The notes: generated from the letters alone by a model not told the origin. DNA of 64,000 nucleotides from an uncultured archaeon (GCA_964486045.1 CAZALK010000003.1:32001-96000); one strand, 5' to 3'; positions 20,404 through 29,601 are shown, counted from the stretch's first letter. Program-made: numbers and translations.

Positions 20404-21024
20404 TTATTGATTCAATTCTTCAGTTCCTAATATAATAATGAATAAAACATTCTTATCATCAACGTTGACAAAAAATTCATAACTAACTTTAACTTCATCA
20501 TCAGTATCTCTACCAACGATTATACAATCATAAAAAACTGGGTTACCCTTCTCATTAATCACAACGCGATCAGACATTATAATTCCCTTTTCGATTAATG
20601 AAACTGGATTTTTCAAGATCTCGTCTTTAAAAAAATCTAAATGATCAATTTCTCCTCTATTATTATTAAGATATAATCCTGCCGTGTGACATAAACTGAT
20701 TGAAAAGGGAAATGGAAATTGCTCTTTATTGTACTGCTCCATTATGGATTCTGATATTAGAACAGCGTATTCCAAAGGAGTTTCCTCAAGATTTTTCCAT
20801 GAGAAGTCAGATTTTTTAGAAAAAGCAGTTAATTTGCTATCCCTATCTTTGAACCCTACAATTAAACCTTGAGATATTGATATTTCTTCAGAATTTGATA
20901 TTGATAGATTATCGGAAAAGATAATTTTATCTTGACACTTAGAGATGATTGAACCCGTAAAATCTCCATTGTTTATTCTATTTTTTAACGCGTCGTATAA
21001 TACAAAATCAGTCGATTCATCCAT
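20404..21024 (-). CDS. Hypothetical protein, probably co-transcribed with the ATPase
   Basis: 206-aa ORF ending 19 bp upstream of the ATPase start. Confidence 0.65.
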   Translation of the reverse strand: MDESTDFVLYDALKNRINNGDFTGSIISKCQDKIIFSDNLSISNSEEISISQGLIVGFKDRDSKLTAFSKKSDFSWKNLEETPLEYAVLISESIMEQYNKEQFPFPFSISLCHTAGLYLNNNRGEIDHLDFFKDEILKNPVSLIEKGIIMSDRVVINEKGNPVFYDCIIVGRDTDDEVKVSYEFFVNVDDKNVLFIIILGTEELNQ

Positions 21025-21205
21025 TTTAAATATTTTATCTTTACTTTTTTATGACTTTTTTAATGAGCTTTTCCATGTAATATCATTAATCTTATATATA
21101 AATATTATATATAAAAATATTTGAGATTTGTGAGTTTATTCGGTTAAAATTGAAATTTTTAATTCCTTAAATGTTGAATCGATTTTGAAGTCCTTAATTA
21201 AGTGA

Positions 21206-21558
21206 AACGATTCAATTAAATTTTTTGTTCCTGGAAAAGCTTACACAGATCAAATATCTGATATCGGATTTCCTACGGTAAAGTAGTGTACATTCTACGC
21301 TTTGCTGAAGTGTCATATATAATGCCTCACTACAAGAGTGTCGCGAATAGCGAACAACCTGCTCAATGGATTATTGGAGTAGTTGATTATAATCAGATTG
21401 TCTCACCCTTTAATGGATATATCGAACTTAAAAATTATTTTGATAAAACAATTGGGAAGAGAGATATCAAGGATATAAAAGATGTATTAACAGGTGAAAG
21501 CATCTTCTCTGAAATGGTCTTCGTTGATAGTTCCCCAACTGCCTTAATGGAGTCATAA
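21206..21558 (+). pseudogene. Frameshifted 3' fragment of a larger unknown protein
   Basis: SIKFFVPGKAYTDQISDIGFPT shifts frame near 21280 into the 90-aa ORF ending SSPTALMES*; no credible start. Confidence 0.45.
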
Positions 21559-21569
21559 TTTTGAATATT

Positions 21570-21695
21570 ATGAAATACAAGTTTATCTTTCCGGCTATTG
21601 GAGCTGCGGTAGTATTATTAGGGTTATTTTTCCCCTCAGGAACTTTAATCTTATTTCCATCAATATATAATAGATCTTCGGCCATCTCTAATTGA
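21570..21695 (+). pseudogene. 5' fragment of a membrane protein related to 37111..37662
   Basis: MKYKFIFPAIGAAVVLLGLFFPSG matches FIWILPLIGGLLTLIAIFTPAA; ends after 41 codons. Confidence 0.5.
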
Positions 21696-21753
21696 TCGAA
21701 AACATTTGTTTGTAAAAACTTCCAATCACTCGCAGGAATGGAAAATCTTTTTT

Positions 21754-22181
21754 TTACTTTTTTTCAAAGATATCTTCGAAATCTCCTAAAGATTCATTAT
21801 TTTTTATCAATCGTATCACATCTGACCATCAAGATCCATATATAGACTCCCACGCTTCCAAGATATCAGGCTCAATAGGAAGATGATTCAATGAAAGACT
21901 TGAAAGGTTTGAAAAATTCTTAAAAGATTGGGGGAAGTTTAGTTATCAAATTATTATCTAAATTTAGAGAATAAAGTGCGTTTAAATTTCCAAATAGCTT
22001 TGGTAGTGATTTTATCTTATTGTTAGAAAGTTTTAGAGATTTAAGTGCAGTCAATTTACAAATTGAATCAGGAAGGGATGTTAAATTATTATGATCTAAA
22101 TGAAGTCCTTCAAGTTTAGTGAGATTTCCTATTGATGATGGGAGAGCATTCAATTCATTAAAGCTTAATGATAAATACTCC
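21754..22181 (-). pseudogene. LRR protein remnant (5'-truncated, frameshifted)
   Basis: Starts mid-repeat (EYLSLSFNELNALP) directly below the poly-T terminator of 22219..22539; +1 shift in the G5 run 21930-21934 restores LPQSFKNFSNLSSLSL; in-frame TGA at 21829-21831. Confidence 0.8.
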
Positions 22182-22218
22182 CAGATTAAAAAAAAAATGT
22201 TTAGAATTGAAAAAGAAA

Positions 22219-22539
22219 CTACTCAGGTGTGGGTAACCCTGCAAGTGCTGTTGCTTCTGGGAATGTAGCCCAAACTCTAATTTCGTATTCATATCCCTCG
22301 ATTTCTATATATTCATACAGTTGGGTACTAAATTGAGTATATGCTGCTTCAAATTGTCCTTCTTTTACTCTATAGATTGACATAACAGTTATTCCGTTCG
22401 GTCCAGTAGAAACCGGTTGGGCTATCAATTCTCCTAAAGATTCATCCGGGGGATATTTAGGGAGCACTTCGAGGTATTTTTTGATAACATCATTCTGTTT
22501 GTGACTAGGGTAACTAGATGTTGCGATAATAAATGGCAT
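22219..22539 (-). CDS. Hypothetical dimeric alpha/beta-barrel-like protein; paralog of 11658..11966
   Basis: YPSHK..VIKKYL...IYRVKEGQFEAA...IEGYEYEI. Confidence 0.65.
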   Translation of the reverse strand: MPFIIATSSYPSHKQNDVIKKYLEVLPKYPPDESLGELIAQPVSTGPNGITVMSIYRVKEGQFEAAYTQFSTQLYEYIEIEGYEYEIRVWATFPEATALAGLPTPE

Positions 22540-22689
22540 TATTTTTCTCCTTTCTTTTTGTTTACTTCTTTTTGAGAAGTGTCGGAATTTAAAACCATTT
22601 AATGATATATAAATCTTTATATTTTTGTAGTTGAAGTCAAAACCATATTATATTTGAATTTTCTGGGAAAAAGGAAACTTTAGGATGCT

Positions 22690-23241
22690 TTAAACTTTAT
22701 TGAGTAAATCTTCTACTGACAACAGAACTCGACGCTGATGAGGTTTTCGGATACTGATTTCTCGACAAAGTTTGGTAGTAAGTGCTTTAATTTTATTAGA
22801 ACGTTTCCGATAATCATCATCAGAAAGTTCAATATAGTGTAAACAATCATAAAAGCAATAATCGACACATGCAGGAGTTCCTCCGCATAAATCACATTTT
22901 ATCGCTTTTTGTTTCTTTAAATATTCCATAGCTCCAAACGGACAAGCAACTACACATTGATGACACCCTGTACATTTTTCTCTATCTACTTTAACAAGGT
23001 TTTCTCCTTTAGATGTTTCAGTTTTATAAATTGCCTCAGCTGAGCACGCTTTCATACACATCGGATCTTCACATTGCACACAAACCACGGGTCTAGACCA
23101 CCCCCCCAAACCATCAGTCACAACCTTAATACGAGATTGTGAGGGGATAAACACTCCTTCTTTAGCATTAGAGCATGCTAGTTCACATAAGTGACATCCA
23201 GTACAATTGTCTGATTGAATTGCTAAAACTTTTTTACTCAT
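22690..23241 (-). CDS. 4Fe-4S dicluster electron-transfer protein (AOR/DmsB-type partner)
   Basis: CTGCHLCELAC, CVQCEDPMCMKAC, CTGCHQCVVACPFG, KCDLCGGTPACVDYC. Confidence 0.9.
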   Translation of the reverse strand: MSKKVLAIQSDNCTGCHLCELACSNAKEGVFIPSQSRIKVVTDGLGGWSRPVVCVQCEDPMCMKACSAEAIYKTETSKGENLVKVDREKCTGCHQCVVACPFGAMEYLKKQKAIKCDLCGGTPACVDYCFYDCLHYIELSDDDYRKRSNKIKALTTKLCREISIRKPHQRRVLLSVEDLLNKV

Positions 23242-23254
23242 AATTAAACCTTTT

Positions 23255-23344
23255 TCATCCTCCTGGTATAAAAGGAGTCATTAATAGTTTATCACCATCC
23301 TTCAATGCAGTTTGAAATTGATCTTCTAGTGAAAGTATGTTACG
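23255..23344 (-). pseudogene. 3' end of a MoaD/ThiS-like sulfur carrier (C-terminal GG)
   Basis: RNILSLEDQFQTALKDGDKLLMTPFIPGG* matches RNI..L....T.LKDGD.V...P...GG; directly upstream of the Fe-S gene as in AOR operons. Confidence 0.75.
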
Positions 23345-23599
23345 TCTTCGTCTTGAACTGAATATATCTTTTTCATTTATCCCATCGATTTGAGCAAGTT
23401 CACTTCTTATGTCGTCGATCATTAATTTTAACCGTGATAAAGTCACAGACTTCCCATCTAACTCTACTTGTATGCTCATATTGGTTTTCAAAACTTTTTC
23501 CCTTAAGTTACTAATCGTATCTGAGATTTCACTGATTTCACTTGATATCTTTTCAAAATCTACAAAATTGGTTTCTTTCGCATTTTGCTCCTTAAAACT
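23345..23599 (-). pseudogene. Internal fragment of a coiled-coil (DIP1984-like) protein fused in frame to the MoaD tail
   Basis: FEKISSEISEISDTISNLREKVLKTN...VELDGKSVTLSRLKL; begins just below the poly-T terminator of 23628..24152. Confidence 0.45.
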
Positions 23600-23627
23600 T
23601 TTTATAAAAAATAAAAATAAAAAAAAA

Positions 23628-24152
23628 TTAATTAAATGTTTGGACAAATAAAGAAAAATCCATGATTGAATCTGCTGTGCTGTCCCCTCTAAAAACAATT
23701 GCAATAGAATGATTTCCTGAAGTCATTGTAGTGTTGTAATGTTGTAGAGACACAGACATTCGTAAACTTCCTGGTGTAACTGTATTATCTCTCCTTACAA
23801 AAATAATTGAAGAATACCAGATAATGCCATTTACCTTAAGTCTAACCTCGACATAACTACTTGGAGTCGAACTGTGGTCAAAATTAATTTCACCAATTAA
23901 TAAAAAATGTACTGATTGTCCTGAACTAACATCGAAATCAATTTTAATAGTAGGTAGAGTATTCCATGCATTACCGGACAGAACATAGTATACACTGCTA
24001 GCAGTATCGTACCATTTATTTTCAGGAGGAGTATCAGGCATTGTTGGAGGAATTAAAATAAAATTATCATATATAACAAAAGATCCTACTCCAAGTCCTA
24101 TGATTAAAGCTATAGTTGCTAAAATACTACTACTTTTTCCCATAAACATCAA
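23628..24152 (-). CDS. Membrane-anchored beta-sandwich hypothetical protein
   Basis: N-terminal TM, Pro-rich linker, beta-rich domain ending SGNHSIAIVF...SLFVQ. Confidence 0.65.
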   Translation of the reverse strand: MMFMGKSSSILATIALIIGLGVGSFVIYDNFILIPPTMPDTPPENKWYDTASSVYYVLSGNAWNTLPTIKIDFDVSSGQSVHFLLIGEINFDHSSTPSSYVEVRLKVNGIIWYSSIIFVRRDNTVTPGSLRMSVSLQHYNTTMTSGNHSIAIVFRGDSTADSIMDFSLFVQTFN

Positions 24153-24295
24153 CTTTTTTTGATAGAATAAATCCTCGTAATTAGATAGATATCAAAATTA
24201 TATAAAAGCTTCTAGGCACCCCTTTTAATAAAGTTCTCGTACGGAATTGACGCATCTAGAAAAATATTTAACTTTTAACGTATTTATGATAGCTT

Positions 24296-24424
24296 ATGGC
24301 TAAAAAGAAAAAAGAAGCTCCTTTAACCGGAATTACGGTATCTAGAGAAGAAGATTTTTCCGGTTGGTATACAGAACTAATAAATAAGGCGGAGAAAACT
24401 TCAAATCTACCATCAAATGATTGA
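24296..24424 (+). pseudogene. proS: 5' fragment (about 33 codons) of archaeal/eukaryote-type prolyl-tRNA synthetase
   Basis: MAKKKKEAPLTGITVSREEDFSGWYTELINKAE matches the ProRS N-terminal GITVxKEEDFSxWYxxxIxKAE; unrelated sequence and stop follow. Confidence 0.8.
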
Positions 24425-24574
24425 TAAACGAGTGATTCTGAAATTAATTCATTGAGAATATTTCGACGAGGATACCGAAGTTTATTTCGAATGTCTTCTC
24501 CATAAAGTATTGAAGTAAACATCCGGTAGTTATTCCTTTATTTCCGAATAATTAAATTTCTATGACTCAACATT

Positions 24575-25065
24575 TTATTTTTGCATTCTAGAGTCCCAAC
24601 CGAGGATAATGTTCCTCCCAAATTTATTCTTTAATATTTTAAGTGATGAAGGGATGTCGACTATTCTGTTTTTTTTAACCTGCATCATTTCCAAATTTTG
24701 TAACTTTTCAATTGTTGGTGGGATTGTTGTCAATTTATTATTTCTTATCCAAAAATCCTTAATTGATTTTAATTTGTCTATATTATCAGGAAGTGATGTT
24801 ATCTGATTATTTGATGTATGTAACCATAAGAGTGATTCTAACGAAAGGATTGGGAGTGGAAATTCAGTAAACTGATTATACTCTAAAGATAATTCTTTCA
24901 AACAATGTAAGAAACCTAAATTTCGGGGTAAATCACTGAGGTTGTTATGATCTAAATTTATATATTCTAGTGATAAAATTTCTGATAATACTTCAGGGAT
25001 TGAGAGTAGATTATTATGTGAAAGATCTAATCTTTTCAAATGATCTAATGATGTTAATTTTGCTA
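24575..25065 (-). pseudogene. LRR protein, 5'-truncated
   Basis: Six 23-aa LxxLxLxxNxLxxLP repeats; frame begins mid-repeat (LAKLTSLDHLKRLDL) back-to-back with the GIY-YIG ORF. Confidence 0.75.
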
Positions 25066-25100
25066 GCGGGTTTGTCGCACTCCAGTGATTTTCCCAAGAT

Positions 25101-27041
25101 GTGAAGATACAAAAGAAGATTACTCATAATATTGTTTCCGAGCAATTACCAAGTGATTATTATCTAAATGATGTTATTGCTGATAGTACTGATGCTTTAA
25201 TAAATGAAGGAATAGGAGATGCCATTGAGTGGGCTCAAGTTAGTTCGTTACCGAACAATCAAAGGAATTCAATAAATGAAGGTTTAATAAAGAAAACTTC
25301 TAAATGGGCTAAGGTTGCAAAAGTTGTAGGATTTTCCGGCCTGGCAGTTGCGGGGTTAGGGGTTACTGGGGGATTGGCTTCCGTATTTGGATTTTTGGGA
25401 GGGATTTCAGGCATTTTTGCTACAACTATTATGGGAACGACTGCCATGGTAAGAAATATTAATTCCTTCATAACTCCAGATTTATCATTTAGGAAATCTG
25501 TAAGAAAAACTAAAGCAATCTCCTTTATTTTGAAAAAAGGTTCAAAAGATAATATGATCGGGATTTACAGAGATAGAAGTGAAGTTCTTATTCATATTGC
25601 TAATAGACAAGAAAAATATATCAACCCCACTAATATAGATGATAAGATCAATAGCGGAGAATATAATGCTATTCAGCCTTATGAAAGTCGCCTTACTATA
25701 ATGACTCATTCCCATCATGAACTAATGAAAATCCATAATAAAAAATCTAGACAGTATAAAAATCGAGGTCTCTTTGGTGTTGTCTATTTAATTATTGACT
25801 GGGAAACCGGAAAACTAAAGGTTGGAAGGACTGAGACTTCATTAGGTACCAGAAAGTCGCAATATATCTCAGCAGCAATAAAACAGCTTAACAAAAAAGA
25901 TCCTATAACAGAAAGAATAAGGGAGTTAATAGCGATTAGAGGGAAGAAACTTGTGAGAAAAACCCTTGAGTGGATTCCAATTGAAGTAGTTTTAAGAACG
26001 GGAAGTTCTGATGGACATATCGCTCATGACCGAAAGCTTATTGAAAATTTAGAGCAATTATGGCAAAACAAATTAGACACTTCAGATCCTCGATATGGAT
26101 ATGACCAGACTTCTGGAGCTGCTGGTCCTCATGCCAGAAAAGCGAGTTACCCTCCCACTGCTGTTGAGATCACGTTACCGAGAGTATTTATTAATCCTCA
26201 CGAACTTCAAATACTTTTGGAGAAAGTATGTGATTTTAATCAAATGCTTACTGTTCTCTCTATTAAGAAAAATTATCTCGGAATTAATTCTAGAGATATC
26301 TATGAAAATATTAAATATCATTGGCCGTTCTTAGCAAGAGGATTAGACACCTTCACTCCCCAAAATAAGCTCCCAGTTTTATTAAAGAATGCAAGATATT
26401 ATTTCATAGCTCAAATAGTTAGTAATTATGTTGAAAATGGCTATGATGTTCTATCCGAAATTGCATTAACATTTCAATCTAAAGAGAATCCTTCTGGTGT
26501 ATCTAGGGAGACAATATCACGAGCTATTAAGCAAGAATTTGGGACTAATTCTTGGGCGGGTTTTCTCTCATTACATGGAACAAAGTTAACACCACAATCT
26601 ATAAAGCATCTTGACATCAGAGAATTTATAAATGTTGGCGGTAAGTCATTAGAAGATCACATAAAATTCACTTTATCTACTTTCATTATTAAAGGGCTAA
26701 GTGAAGCAGAAATTGTAGTTGAATTAAGAACACATAATTTTCATATCAGTTCTCTACCAGGTTTACAAAGGTATATCTACAAATTCTGGGGAAATTTGGC
26801 AAATGCAAGGAAAGTGTTGGTGGCTCCAATCTTGGCTTTAAGTTTTAAACTGGGCCATGATTCGACTCAGATAAGACGGGAGATGCCATTCTTTCAGAGA
26901 AGGGGTCCAGGGCTTAGCGCAGGAGATGTAGTACGAGCTTATTGCAAGCAGTGGTTTACCATAAATCCCACTCAAGCTAGGAGTATTCTGAGACTCAGAT
27001 CTTTAAGTGAATTTTTGAATCAAAATCTAAATGATCAGTAA
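25101..27041 (+). CDS. Probably 5'-truncated protein: Gly-rich hydrophobic hairpin + GIY-YIG nuclease + four HTH-like repeats
   Basis: GVVYLI..ETGKLKVGRTETSLGTRK and LEQLWQNKLDTSDPRYGYD (25767-26105); hydrophobic segment VVGFSGLAVAGLGVTGGLASVFGFLGG; no room for a promoter upstream. Confidence 0.75.
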   Translation: MKIQKKITHNIVSEQLPSDYYLNDVIADSTDALINEGIGDAIEWAQVSSLPNNQRNSINEGLIKKTSKWAKVAKVVGFSGLAVAGLGVTGGLASVFGFLGGISGIFATTIMGTTAMVRNINSFITPDLSFRKSVRKTKAISFILKKGSKDNMIGIYRDRSEVLIHIANRQEKYINPTNIDDKINSGEYNAIQPYESRLTIMTHSHHELMKIHNKKSRQYKNRGLFGVVYLIIDWETGKLKVGRTETSLGTRKSQYISAAIKQLNKKDPITERIRELIAIRGKKLVRKTLEWIPIEVVLRTGSSDGHIAHDRKLIENLEQLWQNKLDTSDPRYGYDQTSGAAGPHARKASYPPTAVEITLPRVFINPHELQILLEKVCDFNQMLTVLSIKKNYLGINSRDIYENIKYHWPFLARGLDTFTPQNKLPVLLKNARYYFIAQIVSNYVENGYDVLSEIALTFQSKENPSGVSRETISRAIKQEFGTNSWAGFLSLHGTKLTPQSIKHLDIREFINVGGKSLEDHIKFTLSTFIIKGLSEAEIVVELRTHNFHISSLPGLQRYIYKFWGNLANARKVLVAPILALSFKLGHDSTQIRREMPFFQRRGPGLSAGDVVRAYCKQWFTINPTQARSILRLRSLSEFLNQNLNDQ

Positions 27042-27145
27042 TTTACACCACCTTTAAAGTTTAAATACTTTAGTTTTTTTATTTATCAAGAAGATCGTAA
27101 TATTTAATATGTTTTATTATAGCAAAATAAAATAAGGTAATCTAG

Positions 27146-28249
27146 ATGGGAAAAAGTACTCCTTATATTATGGAAGGCGATGGGGAAGCAGATATTGAAT
27201 ATGACATAATTCAATTATTAGGATTAGACTGGTATAGCTATCTCAATGATGAGACAATTTTAAATAGACAGTTCTTAGAGTTAAATATGGAGAAAGTTTT
27301 AAATGAAGTGAAAGACCCGTCGGAAGATCCAGGTTATTTTCTAATTATTGGATATTTTATTCTGAAGACAGGAGCAGCTGTTTCTAATGCGCTCAAAAAT
27401 AAGGTTGCTGAGTCTACTAAGTGGGAATATGAAGAGACCATTTATCCTAGTAAAGAAATGGAAGAGGAGAGAAAAGTTATTCTTAAAGATTTACGGGATA
27501 AAATCCTAGACCATAGACCTGGTAGGATTACACGTTTAATTGAAGATGGTGGAGGTTATGCTCCCAAAATACTTTTTCAGGAAAAAGAATTAGTATCATT
27601 AATTGAAAAAACTTATTCACTTGAACAAATAAAAGACTTTTTTGCTAGAAAATTATCTACCAATATTTCAAAAGAAGATGTATTAGCGAATATAAAATGG
27701 TATTTTCGCATTAATTCTTATGACCTTTCTGAGGAAATCTTTAAACAAGCACAAAGAAAAATACTTAAGAAAGAATTTATAGAATTTATAGGTAAAGGTG
27801 TAAGAATTTTAGATGAGATGAACCAAAAACTTATCTCTCTTGGAAAACCCGATGAAGTTACAAGTAATGAGTTAGAAGAACTGGTAAAAGAATCCTTATC
27901 TGTTAAATCTTGGGAGGATGCTATAAAGAAACATGGGATTCCTTCAGAAGGATGGATGGATACGTATATCGAACAAGTATGTGGTATTGACACTGAAAAG
28001 TTTTCTGAAGAAGAAGAATTTGTCACTCGAGAAATGGTTGAGGTTCATTTTAGTGAGTTAGTTGAAATGGTTACTAGGTGGGGCAGTCCTAAAGGATATT
28101 ATAAACTTGGATTGCTTATTCTCGAAACAAGTGCTAGAATAACAGAAAACCTTCGAAAGGTTATTATTGAATTCACTAATGGTCTACAAGGTTTTGAGGA
28201 GAAATCGATACAAACGTTTCAAGATAAGATTCGAAGGTACAAATCCTAA
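27146..28249 (+). CDS. Acidic partner protein (candidate immunity protein) with A-B-A' architecture
   Basis: N- and C-terminal helical repeats (GYFLIIGYFILKTGA / GYYKLGLLILETSA) flank a region homologous to the HTH repeats of 25101..27041. Confidence 0.65.
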   Translation: MGKSTPYIMEGDGEADIEYDIIQLLGLDWYSYLNDETILNRQFLELNMEKVLNEVKDPSEDPGYFLIIGYFILKTGAAVSNALKNKVAESTKWEYEETIYPSKEMEEERKVILKDLRDKILDHRPGRITRLIEDGGGYAPKILFQEKELVSLIEKTYSLEQIKDFFARKLSTNISKEDVLANIKWYFRINSYDLSEEIFKQAQRKILKKEFIEFIGKGVRILDEMNQKLISLGKPDEVTSNELEELVKESLSVKSWEDAIKKHGIPSEGWMDTYIEQVCGIDTEKFSEEEEFVTREMVEVHFSELVEMVTRWGSPKGYYKLGLLILETSARITENLRKVIIEFTNGLQGFEEKSIQTFQDKIRRYKS

Positions 28250-28353
28250 GGAAATTCTTCTTTTCAAGGCAAAGAAATTTATACCTAAATTTTTGATTAT
28301 TTAATAATAACTAAGCTAGTAACTATTCGTTTGGATACGGAATTCTTGTTAAA

Positions 28354-29601
28354 ATGCGACCATTATCTCATTACCAAAAAGTTTCTGAGCTAACGAAATC
28401 GGATTTACTAGATAGAGCAAGCCAATTCATTTTTTCCACGGGATTGAATGACGGTGCGTCTAAACTATGTAAAGCAAATATGAAATACGGTCTTGCTCAA
28501 ATTCAACTTATACAAGAAAAATATGGATTTGAGCCAAAAGCAACATTTATTAGTTCACCTGATGAAACAATATCGAGGAATAAATTTAGATGGAGTTCTG
28601 GATTGGGATATGGTGGTCGCCTAAATTGGGGAGACGGAAACGAAAAAATTGTCTTTTTAAATGTTAAGCCTAATTGTTGTGGTTTACTTGTAGGAGGGTT
28701 AGAAGAAGTCCCAGATCCCTACGACTTGATTAAAAAAATAGATAAGATAAAATCCATTGAGCTTTATCATAATGATGTTCTAATAGATTGGGATTATGGA
28801 GTATCTAACCATTTCATTAATTGTTTTGAGACTAAAAATTTATCCGAAGTAGACCTTCCTCCTTACATTTTTATAATTCATGGTTCTGCTCCCGAATTTA
28901 GAGAAGCCAATAAGCATGGGATTGGCCTTTATATAGATAAATCAAAACTGCTAAAAGAACTCGCAATAGAAGAAAATACTAAATTTGGAAAACAATACAT
29001 ATTGATAGATTCTGATGCAAAAAACTTTCTCAAATTCCATGAAAAGGCTTTAGAGTTCTCAAATTCAAAAAGAAAAATAATAGCAAGCAAACTTTTTGAT
29101 TATGGATACAAACCAATATGTAATCAGCCGCATCAATTTCTTAAAGATTATAATAATATGTACTTAGGTAGTAATTGCACAGATACTAATTGTAGTATCA
29201 TAAAATCTGATATTTTTCCCATAACATTAAGAGCAGATATATCTGCTTATCTATTTAGAGGGAAGAAAAATTTTTCAACATTAACTTTAAAAAATGAGGA
29301 TTTTCTAAAAAGGGCTGAAAATTTTGAAGTTTTAGATATTTTGACTAATGCCTGTATTCTCCCGCATGGAGGTGGTTATGAACTTACAGATATCGATGAT
29401 GTATTAGATATTTTGGAGTATAAATATCAAAGGTATTTTGTAACTTCGCTGAAAGCAAATACAAATAGGCTTAAAATAATTAGAAATGTGGGGGAGCTCC
29501 AATTTGAATATAGGGGAAGAGATATTGTTTTAAAAACACTCCAATTAAATCTAGGGGATATTATTTCTCGGTTGACCCCGTTATTCTCGCTAAAATTATA
29601 A
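28354..29601 (+). CDS. Divergent RtcB-like RNA ligase family protein
   Basis: Ordered RtcB motifs SPD, NCCG, SNHF, IHGS, PHQ, PHGGG and C-terminal LTPLFSLK. Confidence 0.7.
   Translation: MRPLSHYQKVSELTKSDLLDRASQFIFSTGLNDGASKLCKANMKYGLAQIQLIQEKYGFEPKATFISSPDETISRNKFRWSSGLGYGGRLNWGDGNEKIVFLNVKPNCCGLLVGGLEEVPDPYDLIKKIDKIKSIELYHNDVLIDWDYGVSNHFINCFETKNLSEVDLPPYIFIIHGSAPEFREANKHGIGLYIDKSKLLKELAIEENTKFGKQYILIDSDAKNFLKFHEKALEFSNSKRKIIASKLFDYGYKPICNQPHQFLKDYNNMYLGSNCTDTNCSIIKSDIFPITLRADISAYLFRGKKNFSTLTLKNEDFLKRAENFEVLDILTNACILPHGGGYELTDIDDVLDILEYKYQRYFVTSLKANTNRLKIIRNVGELQFEYRGRDIVLKTLQLNLGDIISRLTPLFSLKL

Follow-up and report, generated by a model that had tools for sequence, protein, structure and literature searches.

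A severed nuclease end of a giant gene with a putative immunity partner in a Loki-type Asgard archaeon, a probable remnant of a polymorphic toxin system

The bacterial polymorphic toxins CdiA/CdiI, Rhs and MafB combine a long constant body with a variable C-terminal domain and a downstream partner, and are accompanied by stand-alone tip-partner pairs, strings of partners and LRR partners (Zhang et al., 2012, PMC3482391). One of their toxin domains, Tox-URI2, is of the GIY-YIG type with the signature Y, KxG, [EQ], and its partners Imm9, Imm12, Imm39 and Imm44 are alpha+beta proteins (PMC3482391). For Asgard archaea, the available part of the account of the aloposons Otus and Ephialtes of Heimdallarchaeum describes tandem pairs of giants of 3,000-6,000 aa at tRNA sites (Wu et al., 2022, PMC8813620), and the available part of a census of huge proteins gives 12 in Lokiarchaeota (PMC11573180). 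A tip and partner organisation of Asgard giants is absent from these parts of the two accounts, and our literature search found no description of giants with swappable tips, apart from a possible mention in Makarova et al. (2019, mBio) on archaeal polymorphic toxins, and no published antagonism system for Asgard archaea.

The window analysed here is a stretch of 64,000 nucleotides (G000:C3:32001-96000) within a 5.18-Mb genome assembly, a MAG with 7.8% contamination, and we infer from its gene content (small GTPases, and actin-like neighbours in congeners) that the host is a Loki-type Asgard archaeon. A sequence-only reading had proposed that the window holds an orphan module of an Asgard polymorphic nuclease-toxin system. 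The features at and around the locus are as follows:

21113..28330 (ends approximate), no strand: variable island of about 7.2 kb, made of gene shards and the tip-partner pair, inside an AT-rich divergent promoter
20404-21024, minus strand, and 28354-29601, plus strand: conserved genes flanking the island, recognised by their adjacency in congeners
24575..25059, minus strand: 3' remnant of an LRR gene (Pfam LRR_14/LRR_8, with the frame read at 24575-25039), truncated at the junction where the tip is cut too
25059..25245, plus strand: last 62 codons of the constant region of the giant family, with a TGA at 25086-25088 and a swap point, shared with the C8 and C23 giants, at the 3' end
25101..27041, plus strand: orphan tip, an open frame of 646 aa with a GTG start
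25309..25450, plus strand: Gly/Ala-rich hydrophobic hairpin of the variable cassette, read from the sequence
25764..26114, plus strand: predicted GIY-YIG nuclease domain, residues about 222-338 (profile, fold match, conserved residues)
26178..27020, plus strand: tandem HTH region of two double-HTH-like units, with model residues 311-428 matching AraC-type DNA-binding domains
27042..27145, plus strand: intergenic sequence carrying TATA-like, AT-rich boxes and, 8 nt 5' of the ATG, an SD-like AAGGT
27146..28249, plus strand: intact immunity-like partner gene, 367 aa, pI 4.9 (B profile, HTH copy, dN/dS, complex model)
Partner residues 1-132, 138-264 and about 265-367: B domain, copy of an HTH pair and second B domain (B-profile matches at 1-135 and 252-367)

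The frames of the tip and of its acidic partner were recovered as first read, and the frame of the tip indeed stays open in the 5' direction past a single TGA, abutting at 25059/25060 the LRR remnant on the opposite strand, which has no start of its own. Similarity to giant paralogues begins at this junction. The DNA of 25059-25245 recurs in the same genome at C23:4407 (87%), C8:26405 (86%) and C7:26405 (85% over 79 bp), where the copies sit within frames of 2,010, >9,447 and >9,498 codons, respectively; a fourth giant, on C4 (>5,235 codons), is more distant, and the GTG of the orphan tip corresponds to an internal Val codon in the giants. The 646-codon frame is thus a 3' end severed from a giant gene, in agreement with the suggestion that it was the tail of something longer. 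Identity of the tip region to C8 and C23 collapses at about +190 bp, where C8 and C23 also diverge from each other, which places a swap point common to all three at about 25245. Beyond it, the tips are unrelated, and by motifs read by eye C7 and C23 are HNH-like, C8 is GIY-YIG-like and C4 is PD-(D/E)xK-like. Giants with the same region and other C-termini, for which a search had been proposed, are therefore present in the genome itself and were found family-wide. Longer forms of the tip (1,132-3,230 aa) were searched for and none was found, a weak result since the giants exceed that size, and no full giant carrying a tip of the exact orphan sub-clade was found on contigs that are mostly short. 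The hydrophobic Gly-rich stretch noted earlier does exist at 25309-25450; since it lies 3' of the swap point it is part of the variable cassette, and it is not the conserved pre-tip segment of the giants, whose hydrophobic helices are lost upstream of the break at this locus. Similar segments precede related tips at L140 and L141. Stand-alone tips sharing constant sequence with full genes occur at the present locus, in two more orphan tip-partner pairs of the genome (C3:222597-224065, outside the window, with the cassette at C3:223000-224065, and C13:8102-10749, with the cassette at C13:8740-10749) and in many relatives. The C3 and C13 tips are HNH-like, and downstream of each lies a gene from a second partner family, which has Cys pairs; the C3 tip is broken into two frames and its partner is whole.

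Judged by sequence, a giant consists of an N-terminal multi-TM part (in most copies read; five TM-like segments at the C36 N-terminus), an acidic body of 8,000-19,000 aa with a pI of about 4.1, a helical conserved pre-tip region and a basic variable tip (pI 7.4-9.9). The longest frame of the family, 20,619 codons, belongs to a giant ending near 147-148 kb on G085:C13. The pre-tip region was detected in 42 of 161 genomes of the class by a search with one protein and in 52 of 134 family genomes by a profile search, the profile matching twice outside the class among 400 genomes. A member of 11,809 aa whose tip is of the GIY-YIG type (L160, G237:C57) sits in a genome outside the class, by transfer or mis-binning. 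Because neither 8,900 aa from the body of C8 nor the C36 N-terminus gave a Pfam domain, no secretion, adhesion or autoprotease module could be identified, and a match to the SseD translocon was weak (E 1.6e-4, far below cut-off). About 70 tips fell into 28 clusters, in which the non-GIY classes are motifs read by eye, none of them confirmed by Pfam. The tips at L088 and L170 have LAGLIDADG-like domains (Pfam E 0.0035, below cut-off), which are unusual for polymorphic toxins. A second subfamily of giants (C9:3-10280, C10:187929-198077 and C8:79139-85003) ends in tips of about 1,600 aa without an assigned fold; downstream of these tips are genes that carry a Loki-expanded N-terminal domain, often LRR-fused. 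At C17:1-2300 and C23:293-6325 a giant N-terminus is joined to a mid-gene piece of 824 bp, through internal deletion or misassembly, and the C23 giant begins abruptly at position 329.

Like CdiA/CdiI, Rhs and MafB, the Asgard giants have a constant body, a variable C-terminus, a downstream partner, stand-alone pairs, partner strings and LRR partners. Unlike them, they gave no match to a known trafficking, repeat or protease domain, possess an N-terminal multi-TM part, reach 9,000-20,000 aa and are archaeal, and their orphans are scattered and variably cut instead of being arrayed behind the gene. The logic is that of the known polymorphic toxins (PMC3482391); no named system was matched in backbone, size, host group or partner family.

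Neither Pfam nor NCBIfam provided a name for the orphan tip or its partner, and for either of them the PADLOC anti-phage defence profiles returned 0 families. On the other hand, a profile built from related tips matched I-TevI (E 1.3e-4), Atlas assigned the tip to GIY-YIG at 0.94, and the tip model (pLDDT 90) superimposed on 1LN0 (I-TevI) with Z 9.8 and an rmsd of 2.3 A over 90 residues, on 1MK0 with a TM of 0.80 and on T4 EndoII with Z 7.3. The GIY-YIG residues are Y229, K240-V-G242, R251, Y255, E318 and G-Y-D 333-335; among aligned tip rows, Tyr, Gly and Arg are each conserved in 21/21 and Glu in 23/24, and the terminal Asn of GIY-YIG is replaced by Asp in the orphan tip and in 11 of 24 rows. 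The GIY-YIG core recognised at the outset was upheld by the I-TevI profile match, the fold and the retained catalytic residues, and the modelled fold together with the Tyr/Gly/Arg/Glu core places the tip in the GIY-YIG superfamily, with nuclease activity predicted. I-TevI and T4 EndoII have this catalytic fold in common with the tip, which differs from them in being neither intron-encoded nor of phage, and in being giant-fused and partnered. Compared by signature only, Y229, K240-x-G242 and E318 fit Tox-URI2; unlike Tox-URI2, the nuclease is followed by four HTHs, and the partner is predicted to be all-alpha and is unmatched in Pfam. The four HTH-like repeats were a fair reading; residues 311-428 of the model resemble AraC-type double HTHs at Z 8.0-8.6, a range that may mean no more than a shared helical arrangement. 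Compared with the G074 and L116 tips, the orphan tip has a dN/dS of 0.17-0.24, which mostly records history before truncation.

Residues 1-132 of the partner define an unnamed domain, B, present in 40 of 161 genomes and often LRR-fused. Assignment of B to DUF4259 (PF14078) was rejected, since the feature likeness was weak (0.90, 28% of cluster members, low recognition) and the Pfam model matches no B gene. The B-HTH-B layout is retained in partner homologues of 49-76% identity, and the HTH segment is a copy of the first HTH pair of the tip (hhalign 98.6%, E 1.2e-15). The dN/dS of the partner is 0.16-0.31, and that of B genes without a tip 0.2-0.28. A promoter of its own in 27042-27145 is plausible; the first half of this stretch is partly conserved in 5 relatives, and a promoter scan, run with a sigma-70 model on an archaeal host, was at chance level. 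A B gene lies 3' of 5 of the 13 GIY-YIG tips versus 2 of 55 others (Fisher p 0.002, with kin that are not independent), one of these two being the C8 tip, GIY-YIG-like by eye, and 3' of 0/14 non-GIY tips in a later set. The remaining 8 of the 13 GIY-YIG tips have other genes downstream, B also follows one REase-like tip, and other tip types have partner families of their own. The downstream gene co-varies with the type of tip, in an association that for B is partial (5/13). At L049/L032 (G116:C48), a B-LRR gene stands tail-to-tail with a GIY-YIG tip and not downstream of it.

The complex prediction that had been suggested for the pair gave a score of 0.67, compared to 0.00 for the best of three controls; 58 of 80 solved pairs attain the mark applied to this score, as do 2 of 110 mismatched pairs, and these counts apply only roughly to a pair with its own alignments. 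The runs had at least 72% of contacts in common, with a partner pLDDT of at least 85 (39 in a single-sequence model). In the model, the confident interface brings residues 12-20 of the partner against G242-T246 and R251 of the tip and also takes in E318, with an N-terminal helix that bears the conserved acidic motif DxExD placed on the active site of the GIY-YIG domain. D12 and D16 are retained in 32 of 36 rows. Further contacts come from the second B domain, and the HTH copy barely touches the tip. The model supports binding of the partner at the active site.

Giants with other tips together with the complex model support the proposed orphan module, for which toxicity, delivery and rescue are presumed, and we consider the locus to be, with good probability, what is left of a giant gene for a polymorphic toxin in a Loki-type Asgard archaeon, namely its severed 3' end next to the cognate immunity gene. 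A rather improbable alternative is that the tip acts within its producer, as the toxin of a toxin-antitoxin pair stabilising the giant gene of 30-60 kb or its element; orphans would then be kept, the pair being impossible to lose. Genes for ParB-like proteins and tyrosine integrases upstream of several giants would suit such an addiction module, as would the frequent 5'-truncated giant copies, many of them inside contigs, and the unbroken 646-codon frame with its catalytic residues kept. However, relatives lose the nuclease and yet keep the partner: the tips of the closest relatives are shortened to about 530, 450, 350, 300, 230, 160, 150 or 90 residues or are absent, B is whole in all of these except G074, and among the 11 closest tips with downstream DNA it is intact in 10, though five are without the nuclease domain. 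Lone B genes are also widespread, with three or four in the genome itself, and an intracellular pair needs no fusion to a membrane-anchored acidic stalk. The genes upstream of the giants (at L146-L154 ParB-like, tyrosine integrase and small winged-HTH genes, with a recurring membrane-anchored gene of about 600 aa) suggest an undescribed integrative element. As in the available description of aloposons (PMC8813620), giant Asgard genes lie near partition-type genes and are probably mobile, and they are set apart from it by the variable tip and partner, none of which that description gives for Otus/Ephialtes. Integration at a tRNA downstream of the giants, as for aloposons, was rejected, a tRNA being found in 2 of 59 giant loci within the few kb read.

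Still less probable is a surface adhesin, or a protein that captures DNA, with a tip that breaks down external DNA and a partner that protects only during synthesis. This would agree with the acidic, extracellular-type body, with most recognisable tips being nuclease-like and with no delivery domain being recognised, but it leaves unexplained the tip-specific partners, the partners retained without any tip and the rapid swapping of tips on near-identical backbones. The C7 and C8 giants are 44-100% identical per block over 8,700 aa and then about 20%. A quick tree built on the constant region requires 13 changes to account for the 13 GIY-YIG tips. Unrelated tips sit on sister backbones whose end branches measure 0.02-0.11 (G069, G119) and on near-identical backbones within one genome (G069, G119, G046).

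In 18 of the 20 congeners read, the island is absent and its two flanking genes lie side by side; the gene at 28354-29601 is a conserved single-copy gene of 415 aa, found in 52 of 53 congeners and without a Pfam or NCBIfam name. At the same site G106 has a lone gene of the partner family with a B-B layout, and G074 has a truncated tip of 69% identity and a broken LRR-B partner gene. The stretch 21113-25059 is a mosaic of shards, with two LRR remnants, the 5' end of proS (79% to C31) and a 289-bp piece 90% identical to C33, together with ferredoxin-like and small genes that are intact. Neither a target-site duplication nor a terminal repeat could be made out at the ends of the island or at the 25059/25060 junction. 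In appearance the orphan is a decayed relic within a mosaic island, not one cassette of an ordered array. We regard as very unlikely a stand-alone or homing-type endonuclease beside an unrelated neighbour, or a chance shard; a GIY-YIG domain with an HTH tail does resemble homing endonucleases and the island is made of shards, but this reading is largely refuted by the 5' end of the tip, which is constant-region DNA of the giants, and by homologues that have no start in common, as a free-standing enzyme would have had, and are cut at many different points. There is, moreover, no intron or intein host, and the same pairing is found at several loci that are unrelated and is upheld by the complex test. 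An assembly chimera at 25059/25060, suggested by the contamination of the MAG and by the absence of the junction from metagenome contigs as an independent assembly, in a collection from which near-identical genomes may be missing, is the least credible reading of all, given that the remnant differs by 13-15% from each of the giants assembled and carries a stop codon of its own, that G074 has its truncated tip at the same site and that a 91%-identical pair is present in another sample.

If the locus is the end of a giant toxin gene with its immunity gene, the intact giant would be a long membrane-anchored stalk displayed at the cell surface, which would deliver its tip into a touching cell, where the tip would cut the DNA; the producer would be shielded by the partner, modelled as blocking the GIY-YIG active site. 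The targets would be kin, because lone antidotes are kept in kin chromosomes. The orphan tip presumably cannot be delivered, as it is without anchor, stalk or evident promoter, and the orphan copy most likely no longer attacks; it would supply immunity and possibly a spare tip, which the 187 bp of constant sequence could let recombine into a giant. The partner is most likely the selected part of the locus and may protect against related GIY-YIG tips from neighbours or against the cell's own leaky tip.

More broadly, we lean towards the view that Loki-type Asgards may wage contact-dependent war on kin by means of membrane-tethered proteins of 9,000-20,000 residues that have exchangeable nuclease tips and a delivery region not yet described, and are often carried by mobile elements, and that their chromosomes collect lone antidotes, comprising new B-domain and LRR-fused families, one with a copy of the toxin's own DNA-binding module. 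A likely role would thereby fall to a class of unexplained giant genes of Asgards, and also to part of the many LRR genes and unannotated small genes of these archaea. The pre-tip region, which is conserved and has no known family, may be a new route for proteins across the archaeal membrane, and the small parts, a nuclease of 120 residues and a partner domain of 130 residues with a predicted interface, are testable. How Asgards deal with neighbouring cells, in turn, bears on models of the origin of eukaryotes.
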